Origin: Takakia lepidozioides
Taxonomy: Eukaryota > Plantae > Bryophyta
Length of the DNA: 64,000 bases
Direction of reading: 5' to 3'
Assembly: GCA_030704615.1 (NCBI GenBank)
Contig: CM060734.1
Span: 19,654,001 to 19,718,000, forward strand
Part shown: positions 40,663 to 64,000 of the stretch, in pieces
Position numbering within the stretch: position 1 is the stretch's first letter
Layout: every line of letters starts with the position of its first letter
Made by a program: the position numbers and the translations under genes
Notes under the pieces: model-generated
Databases searched by the model: none
Told to the model about the DNA's origin: nothing
Seen by the model: only the letters and a program-made list of their open reading frames with translations

Positions 40663-41639
40663 ATGCATTTTGAAATTTTGTCCGGGAAAGGGCTCAGGCA
40701 ATTGACACCAATTTAAAATGACGTCCCAATATCAGCTGAACACAGTTACTTAGCTCTGAAGTCGATGGGTTAGTGTCTAAAACTACTGCATGAATACTAA
40801 GAAACAAGTGCGAACCTATGTGGTCCTTGATTTAAGTGATTAGAACTATAGATCTGATTGCTCTGGGGAATGATGTGCCTAGTGTTCCATGGCACTCGCC
40901 GGCCGGCGGAAATCCCTACAAGGAAGAGTCCATCATACATGAAGGGGAGGAGTACAGGTTGAGGTGGGGATCATCAGCACCTGAGTCCCACTACAAAGAC
41001 AGAGACGTCAGCATTGATGATTTGCTAGAAAATGTTCAACATTCGGAGAGTGTCGTGGACTCCAAAGAAAAAGCAGCTATAGTCCAAAAATCCGCAACTG
41101 AGAAAGACTGGCATTCAAATCGTAAACCTCTGGAAGACTCTATTTCCACAAGAGCTCACCAACTAAGTACAAAACGCTTTCGGGAAACGAAGAATCGGTC
41201 TGCAGACTTTGATAATAGCCGGAACCAAAGTCTGGCACATGAGGAGGGTGCGAAGGGCAGAGGTAAGCGCAACAACATCATGAAACCTTGACAAAATTTA
41301 TGTTTGAGAGGTCTAGAACTCCGCTTTGGGTCTCGTTCTGTTCTCAAGCTGTCTGTCCACGGGCACATTGCGCGCCCCCTGACGTTCTGTTTCATTAGTT
41401 TTGGATTATGAAAGTTCACACACGAGCTGTTTATGTTGGTCAGGATTGTTCTGTGAGGTCCTTTGTCCTAAACTTCGATGGTGGGAGCCTAACCCATAAA
41501 TCCCACGCAAAGCCCCAGGCTATGACAGCGGAACTCGTTGCTGTCTTCTCCATCATGTTTGTGATAGGTGCTGGGAGGCAGTCAACACGGAGGGTGAGTA
41601 CAGAAGCTACAGTGGGAAACAAGAGGCCACCCGTGACTG

Positions 41640-44562
41640 TCTATGGAAAGAATACAAGTGGCGAGATCCAAGCACTTTTGGCCTTCTTGGGAACTGGAAT
41701 TATTCCCTTGACTCCGATCCATGCAACTGGATGAGTGTCCAGTGTGGCGTTGGACCTCTGGCTGGTGGCCGTGTGGTCTCTCTCTCTATTGGTGCTAAGA
41801 TGCTGGAAGGGACCATCACACAAGAGCTGAAGGGTCTTCCTTTTCTCAGAGTCTTGGATTTGAGCGATAACTTGCTCACGGGCAATATACCACGCGAATT
41901 GGGAACCTTAAAGCAGCTCAAACTTCTCCATTTGTTTGGTAACCAATTGACTGGGGAAGTCCCCCCTGAGCTTGGTGACTGTGCGAACTTGGAAGATCTG
42001 CAGATAGGGAGAAAGTAACATTCCACGTACATTTGGCAAGCTTCAAAGACTCCTGAATCTCAACGTCCAGGGATGTAGACTCACAGGAGCGATACCAGCT
42101 GAGGTGGCAAATATTTCAGGGTTGACAATGTTGGCGTTGAGTGACAACTTGCTCTCGAAGACCATTCCACCGGGGCTTGGAAATCTCACAGCACTCCAGA
42201 TGGTGAACCTTGGCGGCAATTTGTTGACCGGGGGAATTGCCGACGAGCTGGTGGGGTGGAGCAGCCTTGTTCAGCTTGAGCTCTCCAGTAATCTGCTAAC
42301 AGGGGCAATTCCATCCTGGCTGGGTTCTTTCCACGCTTTGCAGTATCTGCATTTGGGTGGAAATCAATTGACAGGTGGCATACCCAGATCTTTGGCAAAC
42401 TGTTCCTCTCTTCAGTATCTGAACATCTCATCTAATAACTTGACAGGAAATCTTCTGCCGCATTTTGGCAGGCTCATCAACATGCAATCGTACTTGGACT
42501 TATCACATAACCAGCTCTCAGGATGCATACCCCCAGATCTGGGAGGGTTGCGGCTACTGAAGGGGTTGAACCTCTCAGCGAACTCTCTTAGTGGTGATAT
42601 TCCGGGTAGCCTGGGCGAGTGTGCAGGGCTGATAAGCCTAGACCTGTCAGACAATAAATTGACTGGAAGCATTCCAAATTCTTTTGGTTCACTCCTCAGT
42701 CTCAATTTTTCTTTGAACCTCTCACAATTTTCTGGACGGGTTGATACTCAGTAATCTGGGAGGCCTTTGGTTTCTGTCTCAGCTGGACCTCTCTTCCAAT
42801 AATTTGTCCGGGCTATCGCAGGTTTGGGGCTCACAGAGGCGGACATGGAGCCTTGTCCTTTCCAGATACAGACATCTCTGGGGATTCCATACTCTCTTAC
42901 GAATTTAAGCAAGCTTGTGTTCTTGAATGTCTCTGACAACAAGTTGATAGGCACTGTTCCGGACACTGGCATTTTCTACAGCCTTTCTGCAGAATCTCTT
43001 CTGGGAAATCCTGGGCTTTGTGGAGCTACTCTACACAAGGTGTGCCCAGACATTGTCTCTCCAAACCCAATTGCTTCACTTCATGGAGCTTATGGGCATA
43101 AGATCAAGAGACACACTATGTTGTCCTCCATAGCGGTGGTAGCAATTGAGGGCACTGTCCTTCTCTGCCTTGCCTTGTTTCTGTTTCGTTATCTTTGTGT
43201 CCGCGGCACTCTTCCAGGAGATGATGTTATTGAACATTCTGTTCTCTAAGTACTTGAAAGCTCTCAATCTGACAGCAGAGGAGATTCAGAGGGCAACTGC
43301 CAACTTTAGAGATAATAGTGCTAGCATCAGTGGAGGTGGGGGATCAAACAATGTGGATAAGGCCATTCTCCCAGATGGAACAGTCTTTGCAGTAAAACAA
43401 TGGAGTGTTGCAAATTTAAAGAGGAAGGCCAGAGATAACCTGGAGACAGAGCTAATGAATTTGTCGAAAGTACGTCACTGCAACTTGGTGAGAGTCTTGG
43501 GTTTCTACAGGAGTAGAGACACTCTGGGCATGCTTTTGGAGTTCACGCCCAATGGGAGCCTGGACCAGCACTTGCACCCTGGGGGCCACCAGACTTGCCA
43601 GCTTAGGTGAGTTCTTTGCACACTGCCCCTGCTGAAGCTGGTTATTAAAGACCTCCAGAAGTTGGATTCTGATTTGATTCCTGTTTACCACATGTGACAG
43701 TTGTCTTAGAAGTTGCGAACAGTGCGGATGTGGCATTCATTAAAAGGCATCTTCTGGCTGCATGCACTACTAAGGTTCTCTCCATATGGGATTTGAATAT
43801 TTCCTGGCTTAGTATATGCTTTGATAACTCTGTACCATGTGCGTTTGGGTTGCTATTGTGGTCTCCTTTAATACCTCCATTACAGATTGCAATTGAGAGC
43901 TTGGGAGTGCCATACAAAGCCGCTTATATAGTATGCCCTTGGCTGTGTCTAGGTGGGATGATCGATTTCGGATTGCTATGGGAATCTCAGAGGGTCTGGT
44001 TCATCTCCACCACAACTGTGGGAATCCTATGGTGCATGGTGAATTGAAACCAGAAAATATACTTCTGGACTTGGACATGAATGCAAGAATAACCAACTTA
44101 GGGATAGAGCGACTTGTGAATCCAGCATACAAACGTGCAGCTGCAGCTGCAAACTCAGCTGAATACACCCCATCAGGTTAGTTCTAGTGTAATTTGATGC
44201 AAAATACTTTCAGATGCTTTCCTCATGCAGGAGTAGGCCTGAAGTGCTCAATCCCAGACTGATACTGGAAGGGAGCAACTGAGAGCTTGGAAAAAGTACC
44301 CAGCGGGATGCATTGCTGTGTTGACACAAGTTTTTGTTCTGTTATATCAGTCAACTTGGACCATGTGATTTAGAACTAGACATTGTTCATTTCCTTTTTT
44401 GTTAAGTCTGTTTATGTGGAAACGAAGTAACGTGCATTGTGCCACCTTTCCAGGATGTAAGGTGCATCAATCCACATGAATGTCTAACCCAGTAACACAT
44501 ACCTTCCTGCAGAGTATGCCTCCAGCGGAAATTTGTCACTTAAGGGTGATGTGTACAGTTAT
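41640..44562 (+). pseudogene. LRR receptor-like kinase pseudogene (non-RD, FLS2/LRR-XII-like architecture)
   Basis: LRRNT (EIQALLAF...CNW.SVQC), about 15 plant LRRs (LxLSxNxLxGxIP), GNPGLCG, a TM segment, and kinase AVK...HCNLVRVLG...HGELKPENILLD...KGDVYSY. Disabled by frameshifts (about 42015 and 42720), a 68-bp insertion, a stop at 43247-43249 and C-terminal truncation. Confidence 0.9.
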
Positions 44563-47500
44563 GTTCTTAGACTTATCTGCACCTGATGTGGGGCAATGTT
44601 TTAGCTGTGGACACAGATTGTCGTTCAGGATGCAGTCTTCTTCCATCCCCTTCCTGATCACATAGACAGGCTTCGTTCTCTTTTCATAAAGCACCATTTC
44701 ATTTCATTTCTCTTTTCATAGTTATAATTCAATGTGCTTGACCCAGAGACCCAAATCCGGGCCCTCCTTGGTAAGTGGCTTCCCATATTTCTGGGACCTA
44801 AAGGAGGCTAGTGGAAGCTACTGGATGTGGCTGGAACAATTGCTTTAAGCTCCCTCCTTCTGGGGGCGTGTTAGGCTCCATCTATCAGATGGATCACTCA
44901 GGGATTTAGCCACAAATCCCTAGGTTCTTCTATTTGGAAATCTATCTAGTATGCTTGGGGGAAGTTCAGACCCTTCCTCAAAAAGCAAGAGCCATCATCC
45001 TTCCATGAGGTCCAAAGGCAACATCTTTTCCTCAACTCCTCGTCACCCTCCCCTCTGGAGACAAGTCAGGCTAGGAGATGGGCCTCCTGGGAATCTGGTG
45101 GCTTCACTCAGATTTCCCGCATTTGGACAAATACTCCTTAGTCACTTATTGCCGCTCTGGGATCCAAAAAGGCTACATCTGGTATTAACCCCATTCTGCA
45201 AACAATTCCAAACCCGAGAGACATTCTCAGGCTCGGGGGAGGATCTCCCTCTGCACCAATGGGTAGCTACGCCCTCCCTAATCTCTCATATTCTATACAT
45301 CTCGGAGGTAGACTTGCCTTCTGTCACTGGCTACGCTTTTCAAGCTGAATTGTTCTCGGAGTCCCTCTCTCTAGTTTCTTCAAGAACAGTCACCATCCAA
45401 GCTGCGCTAGTCTCTCCAGCACGCATTTGCCACTGGTCCTCTAAATGTAAAGATTTCAACCCCTCCCTCCCTGTAGGAAGCTCTATTGTTCCTTGCCCAT
45501 AAATGTTTCAAAGCAATCCACCTCACGGCGCTCCGCTCCCTCACAGCTATTATCACCAACAAACACCAACTAGAATCCGACTCTTCGAACGCACCATAGG
45601 TCACCCAGGGTACCCCCTGGGTACCCAGGGGTACCATAGACCCCTCTATTTTCTACGGTCACCTGGTGTCCCACAAGACGCCTATCTTTTTATAGGGCCC
45701 ACCCCCAAAAGAGAGCAGTCGCCGCGAGGCGAAGTGGCTCTTAGTTACGCCGGCTCCGGCCGGAGTCTTCTCTCTCTCTCTTGTTCTTTGGCTGCTAAAC
45801 ATGCATGTGTTATTCGCCTGTGTGCATCCAAGGGGAAGGCACGTGTTGCCACCTTAGTCATAGGAAGCATGCAATGGAGGGGCCAGATATGGACTCTCCA
45901 AAGGCGGATTCGCCCTACTCCCTGCTGGCAAGGGAGGAGAGGAGCCATCTGTATCGGGTCCATCACTATGAATTTCGCCAAAGGATACATCCACTATAGC
46001 CAACTCTAATAACCAACTCTATAACTCTCCATTAGTTTGGAATCGAGGCACATTAGTTTTGGATTGAGGAGATCGTAGCTCATGCATGCAGGTTAGATTG
46101 CAGATTGATGGCGCCGAAATTCTATTCAGTTCATTTGTGTACTGTAGATACTATCATATGCCTGAGTAACATGTTGGTGAAGATCACAGGCGGCATGGGA
46201 ATCAATTGGCGTGAAGGCTGGAGGCTAGAGCTCATGAAGCGTCGATTTTGCAAATCAATTTTGTAACTGGTGCAGTATCTTGCTCATGATATGGCTATGG
46301 CAGAAGCAGCCGCTACCATGAACTGTCGCCAAACACCAGAAAGCAGGGAAGATCCTCAACCATCTTGAGACTCATTTTTGTCTCATCAGTTGTTAGGGTT
46401 TGTAGCTTTGGAGGGCAGCTAGGTCATGAGCCCAGCCCCATGAGCCTGGGAGCTGGGCTCACTTTTAGCGCAGTAAGCGTGAGCCTACGCTCACGCTTAG
46501 TAAGCATGAGCCTAGGGTCTAGGGTGTATTGGAAACAACACCTATTCCCGAGGACCTGAGAACGGGGGCCTATTCCCGTTGGAATGGCCAACACTACCTT
46601 CAACTACACAACACAATAAAAGAATCCAAGAGCACTTTTTGGAAACGAACGACAGCACAATCCATGCCTATAGAATATCACGATGTATTACATGAGTTGC
46701 ATAGGACCGGCACATGAGTAGTATTCAAGTCGAGTTCCAGTATCTTGTATTATTGTCCATTGTTATAAATATCATCTTGATTCATCTTTACTCATCATGC
46801 ATTCGGCCATGCCGACCTTGACTTCTTGTCTAGCCTTGTACCTCTAAGTCTGATCTTTTGTTTGTGTTCAGTCATGCCCTCGTCCTTGACAGTTTGGCGA
46901 GACTAAAGTTTGTTCCTTAGTTAGTTAAGATGGAAGACACAGTTGCGGAAATGGTCGCCACCTTGCAGAGCCTCTAGTTCCAGATGCAAGAACTTCATAC
47001 ATCTACTGCCCACCTACAAGCTGATCAGTCTCAAGATCTTGGCAACGCTCTCAACAATCTGCAACAACAAATTTCAGAGTTGAAGGAGTCAAACAATGGA
47101 TCTTCAACCATACGAGTCCCCACTGCAACAGCTCCTACTGCAACGATTCCTCCACATCTTCAAGAAATTACGAGAGAACCAAAGGTCAGCATGCCCGAGA
47201 AATTTGATGGGACGAGATCAAGATTTCGCGATTTTGTTCAACAAATACGATTGTTCCTACGACTACATCCACAACGTTATCCCGATGAAGGTATTCAAGT
47301 GGGATTCGTGGGCACCCTTCTATCAGGCACTGCCCTATCTTGGTTTGCACCACTGTTAGAGAAAAATTCACATTTACTATACAATTTTGAATCATTCATG
47401 TCCGAGTTCACTACAACGTTTGGAAAGAATGATAGTGAAAGAGTTGCAGAGACAAAAATGTGAAATCTACGACAAAGAGCGCGTCCTGCTTCCATTTACG

Positions 47501-49807
47501 CTGCTGAATTCCGACAATTTGCGTGCAACCTCGACTAGAATGATAAGAGCATCATTAGTCAGTTTCGATGTGGGCTAAAAGATGATGTAAAAGATTTGTT
47601 GCTGACAATGTCAAATGTGAGTACACTGAGTGAATTCATCACCCAAGTCATTGCATGCGTTAATCGTTTGTTCGAAAGACGTCAAGAAAAACGATCTGGA
47701 TGGTCGACGATACACCATGCCGCTGCTACTACGGCACCAAACACAACGATCCATCAGACATCCGGTAGCGATCCTATGCAGATTGATGTTGTCCGATTCA
47801 AGCCATTGACACAACAAGAAAAACAACGACGACGCTCAAATAGTTTATGTCTCTATTGCGGAGAAGAAGATCACATAGCATTAAACTGCCCCAACAAGAG
47901 AAGAATCAAAGCTCGAGGCGCAACTCCAGTGTTCGATACGAGGAGGTCGGAAAACGAAGATGTTCAGTCACAATAGGGAATGCGGTTGGACACCACCAAT
48001 TCTTCACATAAAAAAAAATCTCTTTCTACCTCCAGACCCTGTATCTTGTTTCACAGTTCCAGTAAAGATCATGATGCAAAATTGAGATATCTCCGCAAAA
48101 GCACTTTTAGACTCGGGCGCTCCAGCGTGTTTTATTGACAAAGTCTTTGCGAAGCAACACAATTTAACGCTCGTAAGAAGGAAATTCCCGGCCCATGTTG
48201 AAGTCATCGATGGACGACCGTTAGCATCAGGAAACATTGACCATGAAACTCGACCCCTTGAAGTAAAACTTAAAAATCAAGCATCACAGATTGTTTTCAA
48301 CGTCATCCAATCTCCAACGAATCATGTGATCATTGGACTTCCCTGGTTTATAATTCATAATTCTGACATCGACTGGCGATCGCGAAAAATTTCGGCAAGA
48401 CAAAAATGCAAAAGTACCAAAGGTATTCAACCCCTATTTCTTGGAGTTTGAGCCTTCATGAGAGCTACAAAGAAAGACGCGACATTTGCGCTTTATGTGA
48501 CTTCAATCAAGACCACAACAGACCAAGGTACTTCGACATTACCCACTCAATATCAAGATTTCAAGGATGTATTCGAGAAGAAAAATGCAGACATGTTGCC
48601 AGAACATCGACCCTATGATTGTGCAATTGAGTTGCAAGAAGGAACCCAACCACCATTCAGCCCAATCTACAATTTATCTGAGACGGAGTTGGCTGCTTTA
48701 CGCGGATATTTTGATGAAAATTTGTCGAAGAATTTCATTCAACATTTGAAATCACCCGCGGGAGCACCTATTTTATTTGTGAAAAAGAAATACGGATCGT
48801 TACGCATGTGTGTGAACTATCGTAAGCTCAACAAAATCACTATAAAAAATCGTTACCCACTACCGCTGATTTTCGGACTCCTCGAACAACTTGGACGAGC
48901 AAATGTTTTCACAAATATCGACTTGAGATGAGCTTACAACCTTGTACGAATAAAATAAAGAGATGAATAGAAGACTATTTTTCGCACAAGGTACGGACAT
49001 TTCGAATATAGTGTTATGTTTTTCGGTCTTACAAATGCTCCAGTAATTTTCCAACACATGATGAATGACATCTTTCGAAAAAATTTAGATGACTTTGTAG
49101 TCATCTATTTGGACGACATTTTCACATAATGAAGAAGAACATGGTCGCCATGTACCCCTTGTCCTTGATAAATTGATGGAAAGATGACTATATGTCAAGT
49201 TGAAAAAATATATTTTCCACCAATCTGAAGTCGAATTTTTGGGCTACATTATTTCCGACAAATGAGTCTTTATGGATCAGAATAAAATACAAACCATCAT
49301 TGAGTGGATTAAACCAACTTCGGTTCGAGTTGTACAATATTTTCTAGGGTTTGCAAATTTCTATAGGATCTTCATCAAGGACTACTTCAAAATTGTTGCA
49401 CCATTGACACGACTCACAGGGAAAGACAAGTTTATATGGGACGAGAAGGCTGACCAAGCATTTGAAAGACTAAAATAGGCATTTACAACGGCCTCAATTC
49501 TGGTACATGCAGACCCATCCAAACCATTCTTCTTAGAAGCAGATGCATCGGACTTTGCACATGATGCTGTGCTATCTCAATACGGTACGGATGGCCGACT
49601 TCACCCTGTTGGTTTTCGCTCTCGGAAATTTTCTGCTACAGAAATCAATTATGAAATCCATGACAAAGAACTTTTAGCGATTATCGATGTCTTTGAGGAG
49701 TGGTGTCATCTATTAGAAGGGGCTAAACATCAGATTACTGTCTACACCGTCAGATGTTCTTTTTCGACGATCGTATCTTGCGCCGAAAGAATGGGAGACA
49801 GCTTTCG

Positions 49808-50831
49808 CACTACAGGAAAATGGGAGGGTTTTCGACGCCGCGGCGTCGTAAAACAACATTTTTCGGGCAGGGGGGAAGAACCAAATTTGCGACGCCCGGG
49901 CGTCGCCAAAAAAACGCCGCAAATTTACGACCAATGAGGGTCACAAAAAGGTGAAACCGTGATTTGCGACGCCGACGCGATTTGTGACGCCCGGGCGGAA
50001 ACCAAAAAAAAAAAAAAAAAAAAAAAAAAACTACTATGCAATGTAGATTTAGCATCCTCCGGGGGTCACAAAGTGCGACGCCCGGACGTCGCAATTTAAA
50101 GGGGTACATTTGAATTTAAGCGGGAAAATTTGAATTTCAAAAACTTGTTGACCATTGACTCCGGTTCTGTCTAATGGCGATACGTTCATTGTTCTACATA
50201 TATCATGCAATGCATACTTAAACCCAAGACCTCCACATTATAAAATTTCTAAGACACTACAGACTAACCAACACACCTACCCTACATCTATGTATCACAA
50301 AAGCAATCTATATATATATATATATATATGAAGATTTTCTTCAAGTTCCTTCTAAGGGGGTCATTCTTGTGACGTCGGGGAGTTGCAACCTTCACAGCCT
50401 TAGTGCCCAGCCCCAGCCCCAGCCCAGCCCCAGTGTCATCGCCGTTGTTGCATCCCCCTACCGCCAGGCGCCCCAAGTGACGCCCTTGTAATGAAATAGA
50501 GAGCCGCAAAGCCAAAAAAAAAAAAACAAACAAACAAACTCCCACTGTGGTGATGCTGTGTTGCGACGCCCTGGCATCGCAAAGGCGCTGGGCGCCCTCA
50601 GTGACGCTTTAGCGGCGTCGCAACGTCTAAAATAAAAATAAATAAATAAAACTTCGCAAGAAAAAAAATCCGTCGCAGCGAGGGTCTCTTTCCCTCTTCA
50701 TGCCACCTTGCGACGGCTGGGCGTCGTAATGGTGTCGCAGCGGGGCGGCGTCACAAAAAAGCACCGCGGGCTCGGCGCGCGGGGCGTGGGGGTGCGGCTG
50801 GCGTCGCAAACCTCCCCCATTTGCTGTAGTG
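49808..50831. mobile_element. Non-autonomous CACTA element inserted in chromovirus pol
   Basis: Left end CACTACAGGAAAATGGGAGGGTTTTCGACGCC. Reverse complement of the right end is CACTACAGCAAATGGGGGAGGTTTGCGACGCC. Many subterminal GCGACGCC/GGCGTCGC repeats. The expected 3-bp TSD is not preserved (TCG vs CAA). Confidence 0.88.
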
Positions 50832-52639
50832 CAACCAATAGAAATTCATCATCTTGAAACCAGCAAATCTCAAATTGAATATATTATCCATGTCCACCTA
50901 TGATGATGCAGAGATCATAAAGGAGATTCAGGAAGTACTGAAGAGCGACCAATTTGCTAAAATACTATGAAGTCAATTGAATCAACCTCAAGACCACCCA
51001 AATGTTACAAACGATTTCGAATTCAAAGATGGTTTACTTTACTTCAAGGGACTTCTCTATGTACCTTTAGGACCCATACGATTTTGAATTCTTCAAACAT
51101 GTCATGATCTTCCGGCTACAGGACATTTTGGCTTCAACAAAACAATGGAATTGATATCCAGGGACTATTGGTGGTCGCAGATGTAGAAACTCGTGAAATT
51201 TTTTATAAAATCTTACGACACGTGTGCTAGAGCGAAGGGACCACGACATCGACCTTACGGCCTTCTTCAACTATTATCCATTCCCAAGGGTCCATGGTCG
51301 TCCGTGTCTATGGACTTTATTACGGACCTTCCAATTTCCAAAACCACTGATTCAATCCTTGTTATTATGGATCGTTTTACGAAGATGACACATTTCATTC
51401 GATGTAATAAGACGGTTACAGACGAGGAAACTGCAAGACTCTTCCTCAATAATATCTACCGCATTCATGGACTCCCGCGAAGGACATCGTATCTGATCGA
51501 GGACCACAGTTCATATCAAATTTCTGGAGGGGATTATTTCACATATTGGATACTAAGATCAACCTCTCTACAGCTAATCATCCACAGACTGATGGTTAAA
51601 CCGAACGCGTAAACCAGATTTTGAAGCAGTATCTTCGTTGTACGATAAATTGTCACCAAGATAATTGGACGGACCTTCTGTCATTAACTGACTTTGCCTA
51701 CAACAACACTATACATTCTTCGACCAAGCAAACTCCATTTTTCTCCAGTTATGGTCATCATCCTCGAGCAAACCCTTTCCATATGAAGGTTGTTGGAAAC
51801 CTTGCTACTCATCTTGCTACAATTCACAATGAGTTTACATTCCACCTCGCAGAAGCTCAAAAACAATACAAGGAGTATGCAGATCAACATTGACAACTCC
51901 AACCCCAGTTCAAGGTCGGCGATCGTGTATGACTTCTTCAACATGAAATACAAACCTCGCGACCATCAAGGAAGTTGGATTATCAACGCCTGGGACCATT
52001 TAAAATTATTCGTCAAATAAATCCGGTCAGTTTTCTGCTTGAACTCCCACGAAGTATGTGCATCCACCCAGTCTTCCATGTCTCATTATTAGAGTTGTAT
52101 CATCGCTCAAGTATCCCCGGGCGCGTTTCTGTACCACCTCCACCGATTGAAATCAATCAGGAAATCGAGTATGAAATCGACGAAGTCCTAAACTCTCGCA
52201 TCAAGTATAAACGTCTTGAGTATTTCGTACATTAGAAAGGCTATGACATTAGCGAACGAACGTGGGAACCGTCATCCGACCTCGCCAATGTATCTGACGA
52301 AGTCCAAGAGTTTCATCTACGATATCCAGCTAAGCCTCGAGTCACATGTCAATAAAACGTCACACCGATGACGTCAGCCACTTCAAGGTGAAGATTTCAC
52401 ACTCGGTGCACCTGATACACGCTAAGCAGGGAGGAACATCATACATCAGTATATATAGCTACACTTCCAGCACTCTTGCATCTTGTATTGGCAACATGAA
52501 GTCACAGGAAACGGATACATTAGAGTTGTCGCTTATCCAACTACCAAACCAACCGTTCCGACTCTCACAACCTTCAACATCACACCGACGTCCTCCAGAC
52601 GATGGGCCACCAAGGCGACGCGTACTTCCTCGTCTGGAC

Positions 52640-53380
52640 CATTGGTGGCCGGATATAGCACTCTACCCCGGTTAGTGAGTCGGTTACCACCCCGGTTAGT
52701 AGGTATACATAACCGCATATAGGGTATTTTTGCAAAATAGAGTAAATAGATAACCGACGGTTGGGAGGTGAGTATGTATATATATATGTACCATATATTA
52801 AGGTTAGCACTACACTGTATACCCGGATTAGTAAGGTGTTTTGACCCCCTAGAGCGGTTACAATTATGTATAAGACACGTTCATACTCACAACGCAGTTG
52901 CATTTCTAGCGATGTCTCTCCATTGAAGACATTCAATGAATCATGACATTGATGATATGGGGAGACCAGTTGTGCTGATAGCAAGAATGATTCAGAGTTC
53001 CAAGCTCCTGGCCACTGAGGTGGTGACAGAGGGTTTCCTTATGACATAGCTCATGGCCAAGTTGCTGCACCCTGGAGCCCCTAGGGATGTCAGGTGTGAA
53101 TTGATTATTTTTAAAGAAAATCATTGAGAAATACAAGTTCTCATTCAATATATTATATGTAACCGCCAATTGTATATATATATCCGCCAATTGTAGGACA
53201 CCTCTAACCGTCCTATTCATAATCGTCTAAATTTGAAGAATTTTCTAGAATAGATAACCGGTGGATATACTAACTTAAAAAAATTATCCTTATACATAAC
53301 CATGGAGTGTGTCCATCCCAAAATAATTGAAGTAACCTTAACCGGCGGATATATAAAATTCTTATAACCGGCCAACACTG
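52640..53380. mobile_element. Non-autonomous hAT element inserted in the chromovirus 3' UTR
   Basis: 8-bp TSD GTCTGGAC at 52632-52639 and 53381-53388. Imperfect TIR CATTGGTGGCCGGATATA vs CAGTGTTGGCCGGTTATA. Subterminal ATAACCG repeats. Confidence 0.88.
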
Positions 53381-53701
53381 GTCTGGACCCCGTACGACGG
53401 CAAGTGGAGTCTACTCGAAGTCTGATAATCCTGTTGGAGGTTGAGGCTTCGAACCTAAAGGGCAACGGAATCACGTTTGAAGGCAGCTTCGAAGATCAGA
53501 ATGCTCAAATCACTGCGTGGTCCCGAGTTCAAGGTGTTGGACACTATCGATGGTTGCAGGGACCTATAAATCATTTGAGTCAAGAACGAAGATCCGAATA
53601 CTTGGCAAGTACCATTCGCCGAATTTTGGATTTTCTCCAACTCTAAGCAAATCCAAGATTTTACCGTTCCTCGAGGAACTCGGCGCTAAAGGAAGGGGTG
53701 A

Positions 53702-54347
53702 TGTCACGGACATAGCCTAGAAGAATTCACCAAGAGTAATTATCAGAAGTTACCAAGTTATCAAAAGTTACCGTGATTTATCATGATTTATCATGATTTA
53801 TCATGATTTACCATAAATTACCATGAGTTATCAAATTACCATAAATAACTACCAAATTACTAAGAGTAACTCAGGAAACTGCTCAGGAAGCTTCCTGGTG
53901 GAGGAAGTTTCGCAAGAGACTTCCCTTGGTCAAGGAAGCTTCTCAGGAGACTTTTCTTGGCAGGGGAAGTTTCTCAAGAGACTTCCCTTGGCTGGGGAAG
54001 CTTCTTATGAAACTTCCTAATAGCCAGTATATATAGAAGGCGAGACTGGACATTATTTAGTCTTGCCAACACAAGTTCCAGCTATTCTTGTTTCCAGTCC
54101 CAGTACTTCAGTCCAGCTTTGAGTACTCTAGTCCAGTTTCCAGTATCTGGTACTCCAGTCCAGTTTCCAGCATTCCAGTATTCAAGTCGAATTCCAGTAT
54201 CTTGTACTCTTGTCCATTGTTATAAAGATCATCTTAATTATTCTTTACCCATCATGCATTCGGCCACGCCGACCTTGCTTCTTTTCTAGCCTTGTACCTC
54301 TAAGTCTGATCTCTTGTTTGTGTTCAGTCATGCCCTCATCCTTGACA
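53702..54347 (+). repeat. 3' LTR of the chromovirus (646 bp)
   Basis: TGTCACGGA...TCCTTGACA, preceded by a PPT. Internal tandem repeats: ATCATGATTT x3 and ~39-bp GGAAG(C/T)TTC units. Confidence 0.9.
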
Positions 54348-54572
54348 ATGGGCAAAGCAGCTGCAAATCAGCCCACTGCCGAGGGAGGATCACCCATAAT
54401 CTTTCTCCAGGAACATAAAGACCAATTCAAAAAGCCAGAGTCAATGAGACCAACCCAGGGACAATGGATGATCAACTCCAACTCAGCCCACGCCATACAC
54501 TCACCTCAGCAGGGGGGGAGATGAATGACCCAATGATTCTGGAAGCCAGAAACTCGGTCAGGCCTCAAGGGT

Positions 54573-55415
54573 TTGTACAAAGCAAACTTAAACCATCGGA
54601 ATCATCCCCCTTTGGCAACTGCAATAGAGTTCTTAAACCCCATGTGGTCCAAGGGGAGTTTGGCCAAATTTGTGGTCTCGGGCATTGCAAGCAACCCGGT
54701 GTTGGCAAGAATATGTCTGGGCCTACATTCATTTCCAAAGCTGACCCTGGACAGTTGCTCACAATTAGACACTGATAATCCCCCAAAAGCTTCATGTGTC
54801 ACTCCAATGGTCTTCAGGAAAGGGAACCCTCCCTTCTTTCTCATTACCTCTGGGAATGCGGAGTGTTTGGAGTCTCTGTGGATTACGAATGACGACATCA
54901 AACACTTCATGCAGGTCTGCCTACCAAAGAGCAATCTAGATCTCATCATCAAAAAGAAAATCTATGATTTTTTTGCGGATCATCTTAAGCACTACTATCT
55001 TTCCAGTCTGACTAATATCTCATGGGGAGCATACAAAGAGGATCATCCTGGGCTCACCTCAAAACCCTCCATGCAAGTATTAGCTCTCATGGAGGAAGCC
55101 AAGGTCTACAACACACCTGCACCGAAAGATGCCTTTTGGGTCAACAAATCCATAATGTCGAGAGTTTGGGGCCGGGGTGCACTACCAACAAGAACAACAA
55201 ATTCACTCAAGAATGCATTCTTGATTCTATATGCAAGGCTGGAAAATGACTTGGCTCAAGAGGAGTACCAACAGGAGCTACAAAGGACCAGGGACTTCAT
55301 CAAAAGAGACAAAGGACACAAATCCCTAGCTCAAGCATCATCATCCTCCAGCCCCTCCATAAAAGTGGTTCCTTCCCTGCCCGGCACAATTTCTGCCAAT
55401 GCCAGGTCAGCCTCG
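54573..55415 (+). CDS. Uncharacterised ORF (probably TE-derived), truncated by the inversion breakpoint
   Basis: 297-codon open frame with protein-like composition. Its last 17 codons are antisense retrotransposon protease, so the native ORF is interrupted at about 55416. No family recognised. Confidence 0.4.
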
Positions 55416-58254
55416 AGCCTTGCCCAGCATAAGTGGCTGAGCTCCCGAGTCAAGCAGTACTCGTAGTAGCTGAAACCTCCTGCCCGCCGGCCCACTCAAA
55501 CAGAAAACACCATCCTGGTTGTCCAACAAAACAACTCCAGGTGTCACCATGGCGCGCTCAATGGCTGGCCTAGCTGGCAGTTACAGCTTGCCATGGCGCA
55601 GCCGTGGCAGTCTTGACCCTCAAATCCGAGGATCCTGCCACCACTGCACCTTCTACTAACTTTGAAGAAGATGAAGTGACATCCCCACTCTCACAGAGTG
55701 TTGCTGCTAGTCTGAACACTGCAGCTGGTCTTACCCCCGGCGTCGCAATCATGGTTGCCGAGAACAGTAGGGCCTGACACACAGAGGTAGTCGCCCCCAA
55801 CAGCACACTTGCTGCACTAGCCTTGGCAGCAGGTGTCGGCGCTGCACGTGTAGCTCTCCCCCATGGCACAATAATCTCCGCCTCGGTATCCGTGGGGCGA
55901 GAACTAGGTGCCATGGATGGCGTCAACATTGTCTCCGCCAATGTGAATGATTGAGGCAGCCTGGCTTGACGGCTTGCCTCCCCACACTGTGGATCTAACT
56001 CCACCTCTGCGCCTCGTGGCTCATGAACTCGTGCTGCTCCTCGAGTCACGGCTGCAGCAGAATCCACCTGTATAAGTGGCCACTCAAGTGTTGCCCCGCA
56101 CATAAATCCCATGTCTCTCATGCCTACCATGTCTCCTCCATCAGGATGACGCTGTTGAGGAGGAACAGGGGATGGACCCTCACGTCTTGGAGCTGGTACC
56201 ACATGAGTTGTGGCCATGGCAGCAAGCCTCTGCTCTAGCTGTTGAAGCCAGTTGGCCATGTTTTGGTCAATGCCCTGACCTCCACGACCTTGGCCATGTT
56301 GTGCTTGGCCTCGTCCTGCACCTCGTGCCTGACCACCTCGTGCTATTTGAGGTGCTCCACCTCGCCCCCGGCCACCATTGTTCCCTTGGAACTGGCCTCG
56401 CCGCAACTCAGGGTGCAAGTCATAACACTGGGCCTCTCTATGCCCATACTTGCCACAATGCCCACACTGCAACTGTGTAGGTTGTGCTTGTGCCAATCCT
56501 TTGCCGCTCTCTGGGCAATCCTTCTTGACATGGGGTCCTCCACATGTCCAACACACCACCCCTAGTTTTTGTTGGCCTGCAAAAGAAGCTACTGGCCTCT
56601 GCATCTGAGGCCCCCTGTAAGCTCCATGGAATTTGGGTTGGGCAACCTTGCCCCTCTGACCACGCTGCGGTACAATGTGCTGCGTTTGTTGGTTGGCAAA
56701 CACACCTCGTGGCATGTCTTTGCCAAACCCAATGGTTATTATACGCTCCTCCACCATGTTGAGCTCAATCCGCTCAGCCAGCAGAAACACATCTGCTAAG
56801 GTGGGTTGGGCCGCTTGTAACAGGGTTGCATCCCGCACCCTTCTCCTGAGCTCCTAGTCCAAAATTCCATACCAGAATTGGATTGCCTGAGCTTCAGTGA
56901 CCCCTTGGGTTACACTTATCAAGCACTTCATACGAGAGTAGGCCTCTCGCAAGCTCTCACTGGACTTGCGTTGGAAGTCTTGCAAACTTCGCAACTTCTC
57001 TGTCCGTACGACTTGGTAGTTCCTCCGCAACGCTTGGAAGAACTCCACCACCGGGTTGAATCTAGGCACATGTGTTGTAGTCGTGGCAGGAGGAATGGTA
57101 GCACCTTTAGAACTGAAGTACCGGCACTACTTGTTCCACTACTAGTGCTGGCAGTGGGAGATATTGGTGCTGATGCAGCTACTAGTCGTGTCGTGCCTCG
57201 AGTAATGGAGACGTAGTCAGGTGACCAATACATCCTCCACTCCTCAATCTCTGCTTCATGTCCTCGCCTGAACTCGTGGTAATCGTCCATAGGCGGGCCT
57301 TCCAAATGCTGGAACAGTCCCTTCCACGCCATGAATGGGGTGAACAGCTGTGGATTGCACATCTGCTGCAAATCACACCAGCTGTCGAACTCCTGGATAA
57401 AGTCATCCAGCTCGATTGTGCCCACAGCTCCTGAGTACCTACGAGGCCCCTTGGTAGCTCCATACATCTCCTCCATGTCGTCCCACAACAATGGCGAAGG
57501 AAACTGCACACCGGTTGATGAAGCCTCTGAGTCTGTATCAGACTCTGCACTGGTTGAGGGTGGAGGTGAAGGTGGTCTGAACCGAACACCTCATCTTGTG
57601 AACCCACTCTCACTGAAACTGCCTGTAGCTGTACTCCCCTCAAAACCCTTGGGTAACTCCGTGATGACACTCACAACCCGCACCTCCCCCACGTAACACT
57701 ATAAGGCTCTAGTACTAATTCTAATAGTGACACGGGTGGGTACCTGTTGCGGTTTAAGGGTCATATCCTAAGGGCACCTGCACCTGCATCCACTGCAAGA
57801 ACTCCTATGGTTGGCTGGTCATCAACCCAGCCTCACCATAGAAGAAACACTGGTGGTCTTGCTGGTCATCACTCTAGCCTCACCACCGACAGCATACTCT
57901 AGGATTGACCGGTGATCAAATCCGGCCTAATCCCTATGAAAGCAAGCGCCCACACAAAACCAACATGGCGCACAGTCAAGCATGCAGGTGTGGAGGGGAT
58001 CCAAACACAAAGAACCAAAACATCAACACCCCCACACCAAAATCCCTCCGCAGTGCTGCTCCTGCAGAATACCCCAGCCCAAAACCCGGACTGACTCTTG
58101 CCTCCACCTATTGAAAGGTTTTGGCCTACTGAGAGGATGGAAAGCTATGGGAAGGAGAGACTAAAGCAATTCCTAACCCCAGCATGCCCTCAACCCGACA
58201 CATAGGTGTGGTGGAAGGGTGTTTTTTAGTCTCACAATTGTGAGCATGGTCACT
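55416..58254 (-). mobile_element. Inverted 5' half of a Ty3/gypsy element: putative LTR/leader, gag and protease N-terminus
   Basis: Minus strand: candidate LTR start TGTCGGG at 58200 and PBS-like TAGTACTAGAGCC (cf. Met-i TGGTATCAGAGC) at 57717-57705. Gag fragments 57509-55570 carry Zn knuckles CWTCGGPHVKKDC and CGHCGKYGHREAQC. The frame then reads ...RVLLDSGAQPLMLGKA (aspartic protease catalytic motif) and ends at 55416. Confidence 0.85.
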
Positions 58255-61200
58255 TTCTGTGGATGTGAAAAGCATGACACGCCATGAGCTGTTCATTAGA
58301 CTGCAGCCGGATCATCCTACAGATGGCTCAGTTACCATTGTGATGGACGCAGTTTCATGTGATGTGTTGGTTGGTGGGGCAGTATTATATCCCATGGGCT
58401 TCACCCTGGATTTTTGGGAGGAGTCGGCCTCGTATAGGCCTGGATGGCAATCAGGAGATGGTCGTCGTGTGCAACTCCCTGTGACATTCATTGGGGGTGT
58501 TGCAGCTGCCCAGCGGGGTAAGATACCGACACTAGCAGCCTTCACAGGTGTAGTGAGTTGGCCTGGAGAGTTGCTAGAAGGCAATGCTCATGCAGAGGAT
58601 GTGCCACCTCCAGCAGAGCAAGATGATATGCATTGTACGGCGGAGTTGCCTACCATGGTTGCTCACAGTCCATTGTGGGGCACGAGCAAAGATTTGCAGT
58701 AGACTGCTGATAGACGGGTGCAACAAGCTTGGGTAGAGGCATTTGTACCGTCACGAGAGGAGGACAGTGCAGTGATTGCACCAGAACCACCTCAGTTGTC
58801 GCCATTGGATACCACACCTATTGTGTGGCAGTGCCTGGATGAAGGCATATGCCTTCTGGACTTGTTTGGCGGGATCAGCACTGGATTGGCTGCAGTGCTG
58901 CAGGCAGGTGTACGAGTTCAACGTTACCTGTATGTGGGGAGGGATGAGACTGCACGACGCGTCTCACTGCGCCATGTTGCTCAGTTGGTGCAGCAGTACC
59001 CTGATTTGTTGCCAGTGTCTGCAGTTCGTGGATACCAGCAAGCCTTGCTAGCAGAGATCTCTTTGCTGGGGGCGCAGGATTTGGAGCGGGTTGGCCTTAT
59101 TCACTTGGTAGTGGCAGGTTGGCCTTGCCAAGGGCATTCATCAGCCGGGCATGGCAATGGGTTACAAGACTCGAGGTCACGCCTGTTTTGGGAGATGTTG
59201 AGGGTCCTGCGCTATTACAGCTTCAGCAAACAGACTCTCCGGCATATATCTTGGAGAATGTGCCATTGATGGGTAATTCTCGAGCCACGGTGATGGCCAG
59301 TGTGCATCAAGTCCGGTCTTGGCTTGGATCGGTAGTGTTGCTGGATGTAGCTGCAGTGGGGTCACGGGCTCATCGCCCACGACTATGGTGGACCAACTTG
59401 ATGCCACCCGCATTGCTCAAGCAGGCTTTTGATGGGGTGCAGCGCCCAGCGCACCTGATAGTTGATAGCATTCTGGACACAGGGAGGCAGTCTCAGCGTG
59501 TGAGACACGATGACCGGTCACCTTTGGCAGTGATCAACAGGATAGGTCAACCACGAGCAGCACTACCTACACTCCTCAGCTTTCCTGGATCTCATGCTTT
59601 CAGGGATAGTGGACCTGGCCTCCTGTGGGATGCTAAGTTGCAGCAGTTAGTGGAGCCCAATGCTGACGAGCGCGAGCAGGCAATGGGTTTTACCACTGGT
59701 ACCACGGCGGTGCCATCTCTTTCTGAGGCATCACGTCGTCAGGTGTTGGGGCAAGCAATGGATCTCAATTCCTTGACCTGGATTATCAGCTTGGCTATGG
59801 CTGAGCAGCGCAGAGTACGAAGTACATTTCCCTTGATGGTCTCACTGCCTACCCAAACGGTACAGGCAGCGAGTGGGGGCAAACAGGTGAGGACCACGAG
59901 GTGCATGCCACATCCATGGCACATGTGGGAGGTGCTCGAGGTTCAGAGGGAGTTGGCAGCCAAGGCGGCGGTGATGGATGAGGTTGGGGATTTTTCTCGG
60001 GTTGAGGAGGTCCTCAAGGATGAGATGATGGGGCAGGATGAGGCATTGTCACTAGCAGAGCAGGTAGTGGTCACTGCTCAAGAGGTTGCAGCATAGCAAC
60101 CACGGGACGCGTCTTCTACTTCTAAGCATGCTGGACTCAAGGTTGCAGTCACGGAGGACAACTGGGAGCCTGATGTTGGACCCATAGTCACCGGAGGAGA
60201 GAGACGACGTATACGACGGTTCTTGAGGGCTTACAAGAACTGCTTTGCCTTCAGTTTAAAGGACTTAGGAGCACTGAAGGGTCAAGAGATTTGCATTGAA
60301 TTAGCCACTGACATGCCAATCTTTCGGAGACCCTATAGATACAGTGACATGGAGAGGTCCTTGATTCAGATGAGGACTCATGACCTCTGGGAGGCTGGTT
60401 TGATGGAGCTATCTAGTGGAGAGTATGCTTCAGCCACAGTGATGCCAACCAAGAAGGATGTTTATGGCATGGACGGAAAGACGTATGTGCGGTGATTACC
60501 GGCCTGTAAATCGTCAGACCAAGTCCGATAGGTATGTCATGTCAACATCAAAGGAGATCTTTGATGCCACTGGGCATGCCAAGGTCCTTAGCACTTTGGA
60601 TTTACGATCCGGATATCACCAGTTGCCGATCAAGGAGGCGGATAAGCAGAAGACGGCATTATGGGGGATCAATGTGCACGGGAAGGATTGCCTATACCAG
60701 TGGCGGTTATTACCATTTTTTTAAGAACGCTCCTGCAAAGTTTCAGAGAGTCATGGACAAGATTCTAGCAGGGGTGGAGTTTGCTCGGTGCTACATAGAT
60801 AACATCATCATCTTTAGTGCTACGGTGGAGGAGCATGAGAGACACCTTCAGGTGGTATTTGAGCGCTTGAGGGCGCACGGATTGAAGTTACATCCGGGGA
60901 AGTGCAAGTTTTTCCACAACCAAATTGAGTATCTGGGTCACATGATATATCCTGGAGGATTGGGGGTACAGCAGACTAAGGTAGAGGCCATTGCACAAAT
61001 TCCACGCCCCACGGATGTGAGCCAAGTTTGAGCTTTCATGGGGTTGACAAACTATTATAGACGGTTTGTCAAGGGATTTAGTGCCATTGCAAAGGCTCTA
61101 ACCAAGCTGACCAAGGTGGACCAGGAGTAGCAATGGGAAGATGAGCAAGAACGAGCTTTTCAAGAGCTCAAGGCAAGGCTGACCTCGGCGCCCATCTTGA

Positions 61201-61700
61201 GATGACCTATCAGGGGGCGTCATTTTCAGCTGCATACAGATTGGAGCATGCTGGGGCTTGGAGCGGTGCCCACACAGGTGGATGATGAGGGAAGAGAGTT
61301 CGTAGTGGCTTATGCTAGCCGCTCGAACAACGCTGTTGAGGCTAAGTATAGCTCATATGAGGGAGAGTGCTTAGCTGTAATGTGGGTCGTGGCACACTTC
61401 AGGTGCTATCTATATGGCAATCTCTTCACCCTTGTCACAGATCACCAGCCACTCAAGTGATTGATGGAGTCAGACAAGCTTACAAGAAAGCTTGCATGGT
61501 GGGCACTCATACTCCAGGAATATGACTTTCAGGTGGTACATCGACCCGGTCTAGTCAATCGGGATACGGATGGGTTGAGTTGCAATCCATGCACGAGCCA
61601 TCAGGATGACACTGGAGCTCGGTGGCATGGTGAGACGGGCAAGATGGTGCCCGGATGGCATACATCTTCATTTCTGTGTATCTTGGCAACGGAAGTCTAG
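58255..61700 (+). mobile_element. 3' part of the same Ty3/gypsy pol: protease C-half, C5 DNA methyltransferase, RT, RNase H (decayed)
   Basis: CDVLVGGAVLYPMGFTLDF (protease C-terminal motif), then the DNMT domain. RT: RRMCGDYRPVN, LDLRSGYHQ, KNAPAKFQRVMD, CYIDNIIIF. RNase H: LHTDWS, YSSYEGECLAV, LVTDHQPLK. Truncated before integrase by the MULE insertion. Confidence 0.93.
58844..59790 (+). pseudogene. Retrotransposon-encoded C5-cytosine DNA methyltransferase domain (DNMT3-like motifs)
   Basis: Motif I LDLFGGI (58856-58876), IV GWPCQG (59117-59134), VI YILENV (59245-59262), VIII AHRPRLWWTN (59368-59397), IX EREQAMGF, X RRQVLGQAMDL, in canonical order. One 1-nt frameshift at about 59215. Confidence 0.92.
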
Positions 61701-62099
61701 GTTGGACCTACAACAGGGCAGCGTAGCTACGGCGTGAGCTCAGCCCCGTGAGCCTGGGAGCTGAGCTCACGTTGTAGCTGCAAAGCGTGAGCGGCACAAA
61801 TCTGCTGGAAGAAGGTCCTATAGGCGAGATTGCAAGAGAATTTTACCGTGGACAAAACAAAGGGGGCCACCATGCACCATGTCTGCAATGCCTGCACAAA
61901 AAGAGGAATATGAAAATATGGCAGAATTGAGCTCAGAATGATTGACACACTTTTTCAATTCACAGATAGACGCTTACAATGAATGGCATGTGCATTTGCC
62001 CTGGTTCCGTGAACGAAATGTATGTGTTTGTCCTAAATGCAAAGTCTTCACACGGTAACCTGGAAACCAGCGTGGGAAGCGGGCATGGCTCGTATGTGT

Positions 62100-64000
62100 T
62101 CAAAGAGAATTTGGCGGAGCCCTACGTGAGGTGTCCCGCTGCAGAAGGGTGATGACTTCTCCGTAGCCTAGTGTGGCTTGGTGAATGAATTGGTCTCTCT
62201 TACCGTCGCAACACATAATTACAAGGTATATGTAATATTGATGCTTGCAGGGGACCCACTTCCCTCTCATGCCGAGAGCGCCCTCACGCATCGTTACAAA
62301 ATCCGGACAAGTGCAAGTAGGGAAATTCCCCACGGTAACCTGATATTCTTTGCCATGAAGAACTGAGCCAATAGACAGCACTGTGTAAATCCGTCCATAC
62401 CCCGGGGCAGGGACTTCGGTGATACGAGCCACCCGAGCCTGCAAAATTCTAGCCGATTCCATCTTGCATTCGTGATCTGCACCCGAAGCGACACGGCGCA
62501 CTGTTTTTCCATCTCTTTTTGTTGGGTGGGAGTCGGCACCGGGTGGAGGCATTGCCGGAGCATGTGGCACATCTGTGCCGACAGTGCACAAGGGCACCAC
62601 CCGGGACCGTGCAAGACAAAACCCTCCCTCCTCCAGCATGCTTATCTCGGTTGTTGACAGCGACGTCCCAAGTTTCACAGGCCAAATTGCGGGGGGGGGG
62701 GGTTTCATTATCACCGAAGGACGAACTGTTCCCTTGACGCATCGTGCCATATCGTCTGGGCAGAACCAGAACTTGTGGTCCTTTGACTCCCCACTATGAT
62801 AAGGTCGGAACAACCCTGTGAATGTTGGAGCTGGAGTCCCCCTGGAGCCTTTGCATATTTTTGATTTGCATTTCTTGAAAGAGGGGGTCCGAATTGCCAT
62901 GCAAGCAACTCTAGATCCTGGTGGGGTGCGTTCTATATGCCACTCACTATCAATGCAATCAGATTCCTGCACCATGGCCACCACCTCCTCCAATGGGATT
63001 CCTGCTGCTGTGCTTGCATGTTCTGCACCTGCTCCACTGGAGGAGGACCCACCTGGGAAGGGGGGCACACGACTTAGTCTGCACTGGAGACACCTTTGGC
63101 ACAGAGAAATTGACCCTGTCTGGGCGATGGGAATCTCCATCTGACCCTGGAAGAGTGTTCAATTTCCTTTTGCATGATCCAAATCTTTCCTCGCCTTCCA
63201 AATGAGGGAGCCTGGATTGCAAAGGGGAGCCTTCAGTGCACCTGTTCAGAGCTCTGGCCATCTTCGATGGGTCTCTACTCGCAGCCCTTAGCATCAACAA
63301 AGTCGTACCGGGGCCCTTGCCTCCACCCCGATCCCATCAGAAAATACCTGTTTGTTGTGTAAGTGCCCGCACCATGTCATCAGCAGTGGCCAATACAAGT
63401 CACGACCTGCTTGGTAGATTGCTGCATCCAGGCGTTGTGAACAGTCTCCGCCAAATTACAGGATGGCATGTCGGCCAAGTCCTCCAAGGACATGTCCTGT
63501 AGGAGGCATTGCATGGAAATGTGAGGACGAAAGAAATGGAAGAGGTTCTGCAAGCGACAATCCAAAACCCCAAATGAACAGGCACGATGCAATTTTGTTT
63601 TTTTGGGATTGAAGAGGCTTACCGTCGTCATGAAAGCTCCCCACTGTTGTACCTGAAGTGCCAGAAACCAACCAGTCCTCCAACTCCTTCAGTGGATACC
63701 AGTAGCAGCACCAGAGGAGAACCACCAAGCCCGGATTGCCTGGTAAGTGCTCTGAGCTTCTCCCATTAAGGTGGCATTTTTGTACTTGAGACAGAGCCTT
63801 CTGTGCTCCAACTGAAGGTCAGGGCGAATGCAGCGCTTTGTATGACGTGCCAGAGATTGACTCCAATGGAAGAGGCATGTGCGCTCCCTATTTCCATTGG
63901 GACCTTAGGATCCCCCGAACCAAACACGCGCCGCACTGCATTGAAATTTGCCTGTGCACTATCAGCAAATGAAGCCCGCAAAATTTGTGTCTGTATTCCA
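62100..64000 (-). mobile_element. Mutator-like (MULE) DDE transposase with C-terminal SWIM zinc finger, frameshifted, continues past window end
   Basis: Minus-strand fragments ADSAQANFNAVRRVFG (second catalytic D region), RTCLFHW (CxxH) and CNLAETVHNAW (catalytic E). ORF 62100-63140 has the SWIM motif YQVTVGNFPTCTCPDF...PCKHQYY. Confidence 0.85.

Follow-up and report, generated by a model that had tools for sequence, protein, structure and literature searches.

In yeast, retrotransposon cDNA is captured as a patch at repaired chromosome breaks. For the fillers left by break repair in plants, the template is described as lying more often in cis (PMC7156093), with classical joining being characterized by small losses and 0–1 bp of microhomology, and theta-mediated joining by templated insertions and shards from nearby molecules (PMC10923293). 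In chromothripsis and chromoplexy, grouped as chromoanagenesis, several breaks are repaired together, and inverted segments as well as out-of-order fragments are described among the products (PMC6371609, PMC6988253, 10.1101/2023.05.22.541757), with the breakpoints of chromothripsis numbering tens to hundreds along a chromosome. As to the type of retroelement that is involved here, KnitGypsy-Dnmt3 of Klebsormidium nitens has been described as an LTR Gypsy element whose pol frame includes a DNMT3-like domain (PMC5890265), and a 2026 preprint names ‘streptophytes (Gypsy-DNMT3)’ (10.64898/2026.05.21.726589).

In the window analysed here, i.e. the whole stretch of 64,000 nucleotides, a 68-bp insert within a single LRR of a receptor-kinase pseudogene is the retropepsin stretch that is absent from a rearranged Gypsy-DNMT3 copy 12.5 kb downstream. 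Insert and inversion are, with a probability of about 0.85 in all, products of one and the same repair event. The locus is a repair scar of a known kind, yet an unusually well documented one, and its parts are listed in table 1.

Table 1. Features of the insertion site and of the rearranged element, with positions counted from the first letter of the window.
Feature	Position	Strand	Content
LRR receptor-kinase pseudogene	41500..44620	+	LRRNT, at least 11 LRRs, transmembrane stretch, kinase domain with introns
68-bp shard of Gypsy-DNMT3 retropepsin gene	42813..42880	+	sense orientation relative to the element's C-half
Low-copy left flank	54348..55415		between first gypsy element and inversion junction; 309-codon open frame
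Inverted 5' part of Gypsy-DNMT3 copy	55416..58201	-	LTR (terminus TG at 58201), gag, protease N-half
Protease N-half	55580-55416	-	ends AAG GCT at 55416
Single-copy junction stretch, 68 nt	58202..58269		between inverted LTR terminus and C-half
Rest of element, original orientation	58270..61460	+	protease C-half, DNMT3-like methyltransferase, reverse transcriptase, RNase H

The preliminary description of this DNA had noted 68 bp between G runs that split an LRR and shift its frame, and both observations are borne out. The plus strand at 42783–42812 encodes LDLSSNNLSG, followed by the 68 bp and then by GIPYSL... (in codons ...TTG TCC GGG, 68 bp, GGG ATT CCA...). When the 68 bp are removed, the two pieces form one plant LRR of 24 residues, which is in register with the nine preceding repeats, and L-T-G-G-I is also read in two of these nine; the frame shifts at the insert because 68 is not a multiple of 3. 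The flanking G runs (GGG at 42810–42812 and GGGG at 42880–42883) allow the borders of the insert to slide by up to 3 nt. Around it the LRR sequence is complete at both ends, with no LRR base lost, and the insert has dissimilar ends, i.e. there are neither terminal repeats nor a target duplication. Transposition was rejected for this very reason, as was, given the dissimilar ends, an element with terminal repeats of its own; an intron was rejected because no GT..AG excision restores the LRR repeat. Within the window the insert is single (one match at up to 3 mismatches, with 0 expected from 100 shuffles), and no second match above chance was found there by blastn or tblastn. Its ends, the otherwise intact host sequence and the identified donor family and gap are those of filler or captured DNA.

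The recipient gene has the architecture of a plant LRR receptor-like kinase, with an LRR ectodomain, a transmembrane stretch and a protein kinase domain, and its Pfam matches are LRR_1 (9.7e-31), LRR_8 (3.8e-24) and Pkinase (6.6e-10). The usual catalytic motifs of kinases are HRD and DFG; the corresponding places read HGE and NLG here, and the frame is not intact, with further changes near 42005, at 42717–42723 and near 43235. The last of these, at least, is not an assembly error, since a short-read contig covers 42854–43747 (27 letters of it on the insert side) with 0 differences. Because at least three frame-breaking lesions other than the insert are present in the kinase gene, the insert cannot be credited as its killer, and the earlier suggestion that it helped to disable the kinase, the catalytic motifs of which are altered as well, cannot be upheld. 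The LRR near 42005 is also shortened.

The donor shows the order of a Ty3/Gypsy element, i.e. gag, protease, reverse transcriptase and RNase H, with a C5 methyltransferase in the pol frame that sits, in this family, between protease and reverse transcriptase. Methyltransferase (PF00145, E 4.5e-8), reverse transcriptase (RVT_1, 9.6e-18) and RNase H (RT_RNaseH, 1.2e-25) are matched directly, and the family profile finds the DNMT3A/3C/3B chains with an E of about 1e-9; in this profile search against solved structures only the methyltransferase part was found and no solved protease was matched, and gag and protease were recognized by their likeness to relatives. No integrase was found before the window ends at 64000, and of the LTR ends only that of the 5' LTR lies within the window. 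The copy is degenerate, with stops and a frame change at ~55580, and its protease gene is broken in two. On the minus strand the N-half, which includes the active-site motif D-[ST]-G-A (...RVLLDSGAQP...) conserved in the rows of the family alignment, ends with ...LLDSGAQPLMLGKA at 55416 and is then followed by a stop; on the plus strand the C-half reads ...MTRHELFIRLQPDHPTDGS...DVLVGG... and includes ...MTRHELFIRL.... Elsewhere in the window, no further shards of the element were found.

The preliminary description had also held that the insert is not LRR-like and fits between the two protease halves, and natural relatives of the protease confirm the fit. A database search with the frame of the C-half gave 913 candidates, eight of which reach E ≤0.001 (41–57% identical), and two of these eight are named by their source as Marchantia polymorpha proteins. 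Seven of them are unbroken and read ...LLD[ST]GAQPLMLGK-, then 24 insert-like residues and then ...[MI]T[RK]..., the eighth being fused to other sequence on its N side. The insert, which translates from 42812 as AIAGLGLTEADMEPCPFQIQTSLG (AIAGLGL...QTSLG), is identical to the relatives at 12 of 12 positions in EPCPFQIQTSLG. By tblastn, the relative P0003 falls into three pieces in the window, with its residues 84–138 at 55580–55416 (minus), residues 139–162 at 42812–42883 (plus, E 4.9e-6) and residues 171–417 at 58274–58990 (plus), and for four of the eight relatives compared with the window in this way, protease is seen at three places only, i.e. 55580–55416 (minus), 42812–42883 (plus) and from 58268/58274 onward (plus). 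The family comprises 386 members at E ≤0.001 and 168 at 1e-10 among the 1.84 billion representatives searched. In a wider alignment of 39 out of 158 proteins, chosen because their match covers the protease, the three blocks are contiguous in 31 rows, and the other eight rows are fragments.

For the N- and C-halves in the window themselves no Pfam protease match was found, and the relatives score below the cut-off (Asp_protease_2 with E 0.0012 and 20 bits at a cut-off of 24.3; RVP_2 with E 0.038); the nearest clusters in the ESM Atlas belong to RVP_2 families (score 0.94), which is a lead only. When P0009 was modelled on the 39-row alignment (pLDDT 76.9 overall and about 95 in the domain), the best Foldseek matches of the model were Ddi1 retroviral-protease-like domains (E 2.1e-5, TM by target 0.63–0.70), followed by the RSV and HIV-1 proteases. 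The predicted fold of P0009, a natural relative that was modelled in place of the broken gene, is that of a retropepsin. In this model the equivalent of the insert (residues 139–162) comprises the helix that follows the active-site loop, then a strand, and the beginning of a loop modelled with low confidence. The earlier assignment of the insert to the protease flap region thus appears about right, in that the start of the flap loop is included, with the preceding helix and strand belonging to the insert as well.

Intact paralogs of the element were sought among contigs, not reads, from four sequencing runs of one sample, which is perhaps the source of the assembly; these were compared with 42500–58700 at 80% likeness, and it is the best-supported rows that are considered here. 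In each of the four runs, at least two to three contigs connect 42812/42813 with 55421, the two lying on opposite strands, and have 70–71 letters on the insert side; at least one further contig leads from 42882 to 58272 across 20 other letters. No contig that skips the 68 bp is among the joints listed, from which nothing is drawn. Since the insert is thereby joined to both halves, intact paralogs carry insert-like sequence directly between the protease halves. Beyond 55421, the paralogs pass from the last two codons of the N-half directly into the first codons of the insert, i.e. the end of the N-half (AAG GCT, 55416) and the start of the insert (GCT ATC) abut, with nothing missing or doubled; the first G of the insert's GCT lies in the ambiguous G run. 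This is what had been predicted for intact copies, namely an insert directly between the N- and C-halves, and at the left junction there is neither gap nor overlap. In the rearranged copy the junction at 55416 is bridged at single-copy depth by a contig covering 54935–55498 with 2 differences. Judged by summed contig depth, the Gypsy-DNMT3 family is very abundant in the genome, and the insert-like sequence of its paralogs is at least 80% alike to the insert. On both sides of the left inversion junction AGCCT (5 nt) is found, with CG between (55409–55421), a pair that possibly represents microhomology or a small templated repeat.

At the right junction, the cover by the family stops at 58196–58201, where the paralogs continue into differing flanks (as seen for the contigs listed for 58120–58340), which places the LTR terminus there, with TG on the minus strand. 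Family cover resumes at 58270–58272; in between there is only single-copy depth among the contigs listed, none of which gives cover above that depth over 58208–58271, and one X3 contig spans 58177–58302 with 0 differences. Among the paralog contigs listed, the closest ones show 5 differences in 65 nt, and their match breaks off at 58270 though they extend 29–33 letters further to the left; the C-half most likely starts at this position. The ~20 nt that follow the insert-equivalent in the paralogs were found nowhere, and at the right side this piece of element sequence is most likely gone or replaced. The 22 nt at 58250–58271 keep the frame, and counting them would bring the sequence to the length of the Marchantia relatives, yet no alignment was found for them. 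SVDVKS (58256–58273), which had been read as the start of the C-half, is indeed in frame, but it can be aligned to no relative or paralog, with likeness resuming at 58270–58274. The prediction of little or no overlap or gap holds for insert and C-half as far as overlap is concerned, of which there is none, but a gap of ~20 nt is left unless 58250–58271 is counted as element sequence.

The single-copy stretch between LTR terminus and C-half is likely to be the former upstream flank of the element, inverted along with it and possibly accompanied by filler. It is similar neither to the insert, with which its local alignment scores 15, for a shuffled median of 13 and a 95th percentile of 17, nor to the left flank, with which it scores 23 against 24; the equal length of insert and junction stretch (68 nt) seems to be a coincidence. 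The stretch contains a perfect 14-nt palindrome (7+7, no spacer) at 58231–58244, ~26 nt before the start of the C-half, from which nothing is drawn as to a hairpin or snap-back trace, given that the window contains 26 such 7+7 palindromes, some of which belong to simple repeats. A 10-nt match of the stretch to 42720–42729, 83 nt from the insertion site, was put down to chance, with 79 of 1261 windows of 300 nt (6%) giving an equal one.

The earlier proposal that a single complex break-and-rejoin event links inversion and insert finds its support in the positions of the insert's two ends, which match the gap edges of one copy 12.5 kb away and tie the insert to the inversion. In an element of roughly 9–10 kb, the insert fits the local gap to the base on the left and within ~22 nt on the right, and independent origins of insert and gap are very unlikely (a chance of about one in a million by our own estimate). 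Of the routes to such a scar we lean slightly towards one multi-break end-joining event that inverted the 5' 2.85 kb of the element and moved the shard into the break in the LRR-kinase gene. One break would have hit the LRR, another the sequence upstream of the element, and two more the element itself, behind the N-half and some 70–90 nt beyond that point. The segment 55416–58269 (2854 bp, i.e. the 68 nt of presumed flank, LTR, gag and N-half) would have been rejoined upside down, and the small fragment between the two breaks in the element would have been ligated, with its original orientation kept, into the simultaneous LRR break, by a left join that was blunt or had an overlap of 1 nt and a right join with 3–4 nt of G microhomology. 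About 20 nt would have been trimmed either from the fragment where it met the LRR end or from the end of the C-half; at five of the ends hardly anything would have been lost, and the remainder of the element would have stayed where it was. The intact LRR ends are as expected for protected ends that are joined with little processing. Order and simultaneity of the lesions we infer from their geometry alone, in one sample. Against a moved shard it has to be said that two breaks within about 90 bp are required, that on the right the pieces do not fit together to the base, and that the scheme gives no account of 58202–58269.

The main rival, tentative and clearly less probable than the moved shard, is that in one event with three breaks only, the 68 bp was copied rather than moved, i.e. 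that it is a templated filler, the donor end of which was then lost. The 3' end of the right LRR side (CCC) would have primed on the GGGG within the C-side end of the broken element, and synthesis would have copied 68 nt before running off at the break, as when fillers are formed by polymerase theta or by synthesis-dependent repair; the donor end would then have lost ~90 nt by resection before being joined to the inverted segment. This course is supported by the 3–4 nt of G microhomology on the insert's right border and by the insert's exact stop at the break on the left, as well as by a donor deletion (~90 nt) larger than the insert, which resection allows, and by the need for one break fewer than with a moved shard. 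Moreover, break repair in plants has been found to leave templated fillers, including some templated by other molecules nearby (PMC10923293, PMC7156093), but as described there they are mostly short and local. Copying also needs the 5'-ending strand of the break end as a template before resection, and then the loss of just the copied part plus ~20 nt, with a shorter loss resulting in an overlap and a longer one in a larger gap, whereas insert and C-half are found to be free of overlap. The final sequence is equal for a moved and a copied shard, and therefore cannot tell the two apart.

Very improbable by comparison are two unrelated events, be it that the LRR break captured DNA or cDNA of some other copy, with the local copy being rearranged separately, or that two truncated copies came to lie head to head. 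The abundance of the family and the similarity of the paralogs' insert-like sequence (at least 80%) would make room for such a history, and the gap on the right side leaves just one exact junction, but the start of the insert equals the end of the N-half to the base, its end comes within ~22 nt of the start of the C-half and it resides only 12.5 kb from that very copy, so that the tiling comes close to refuting separate origins. An assembly artefact, with insert or inversion arising from a misjoin among repeats, would be conceivable in a repeat-rich region with read data from one sample, yet is the least probable explanation of all, since the junctions are spanned, at single-copy depth, by contigs from four runs that show 0–2 differences (54935–55498, 42854–43747 and 58177–58302). 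Autointegration of the element's own cDNA was rejected, because low-copy DNA and not an LTR end is found to the left of 55416, and because 68 nt of single-copy DNA stand between LTR end and C-half.

With retroelement sequence serving as the patch in a repaired break, the locus resembles the capture of cDNA in yeast, but those patches derive from free cDNA of any copy, whereas here the patch fits the gap of a neighbouring copy. Plant filler DNA is similar in being a short foreign stretch at a repaired break, with no terminal repeats or target duplication, with microhomology at the border and, in the present case, with a donor in cis within about 12 kb. Classical fillers, however, are copies that leave their template intact, whereas here the donor site is devoid of the stretch and is itself a rearrangement junction; in the strict sense of a templated filler, i.e. 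with the template still present at the donor site, the insert does not qualify, since the local copy lacks it. Several breaks repaired together, an inverted segment and an out-of-order fragment are shared with chromothripsis and chromoplexy. Unlike in chromothripsis, the breaks number three or four within 15.5 kb, a single segment is inverted and a single piece of only 68 bp is relocated, with no further shard in the window, and the term miniature chromothripsis, which the preliminary description had used, is overstated for an event of 3–4 breaks. The chances are about even that this is a natural micro-chromoplexy fixed in the germline, with four breaks within 15.5 kb, two of them <100 bp apart, and a physical fragment that was carried over 12.5 kb. 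If so, it would be a rare case from a wild plant in which shard and hole can be matched to the base, and it would mean that small pieces of free DNA persist and pass from one break to another that is open at the same time.

The biological consequences of the rearrangement are probably small, with both donor and recipient having been, or having become, dead sequence. As a natural record of joint repair in one chromatin neighbourhood, however, the locus tells which ends were kept, which were trimmed and where a fragment went, and usually it is irradiated or nuclease-treated material, rather than a wild-type genome, that yields such records. It also cautions annotators that a short insert of transposon origin within a gene may be a repair shard instead of a product of transposition. 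In addition, the linked insert and inversion provide a compound marker for tracing the haplotype. The donor is like KnitGypsy-Dnmt3 in being a Gypsy element with a DNMT3-like domain in the pol frame, but is a dead, rearranged copy. ‘Marchantia’ has 0 occurrences in the main text of PMC5890265, whereas the named relatives of the donor are from Marchantia polymorpha, and the spread of Gypsy-DNMT3 elements in land plants may deserve a look.

In the neighbourhood of the rearranged copy, the low-copy left flank (1.07 kb) has a depth of about 5 times single copy, with diverged copies elsewhere in the genome that are about 85% alike and lose their likeness at 55357, 58 nt before the junction; for its open frame no family match was found. 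The first gypsy element, which has no methyltransferase, occupies about 46.7–54.35 kb and is bounded by 172-bp repeats (46720–46891 and 54177–54347) that are 92% alike and short for LTRs. Three tandem units of 31 nt lie just inside its right end (53892–54015). A 70-nt repeat that is 84% alike (61725–61792 and 46417–46484) is the sole likeness of the region of the DNMT element to the rest of the window.
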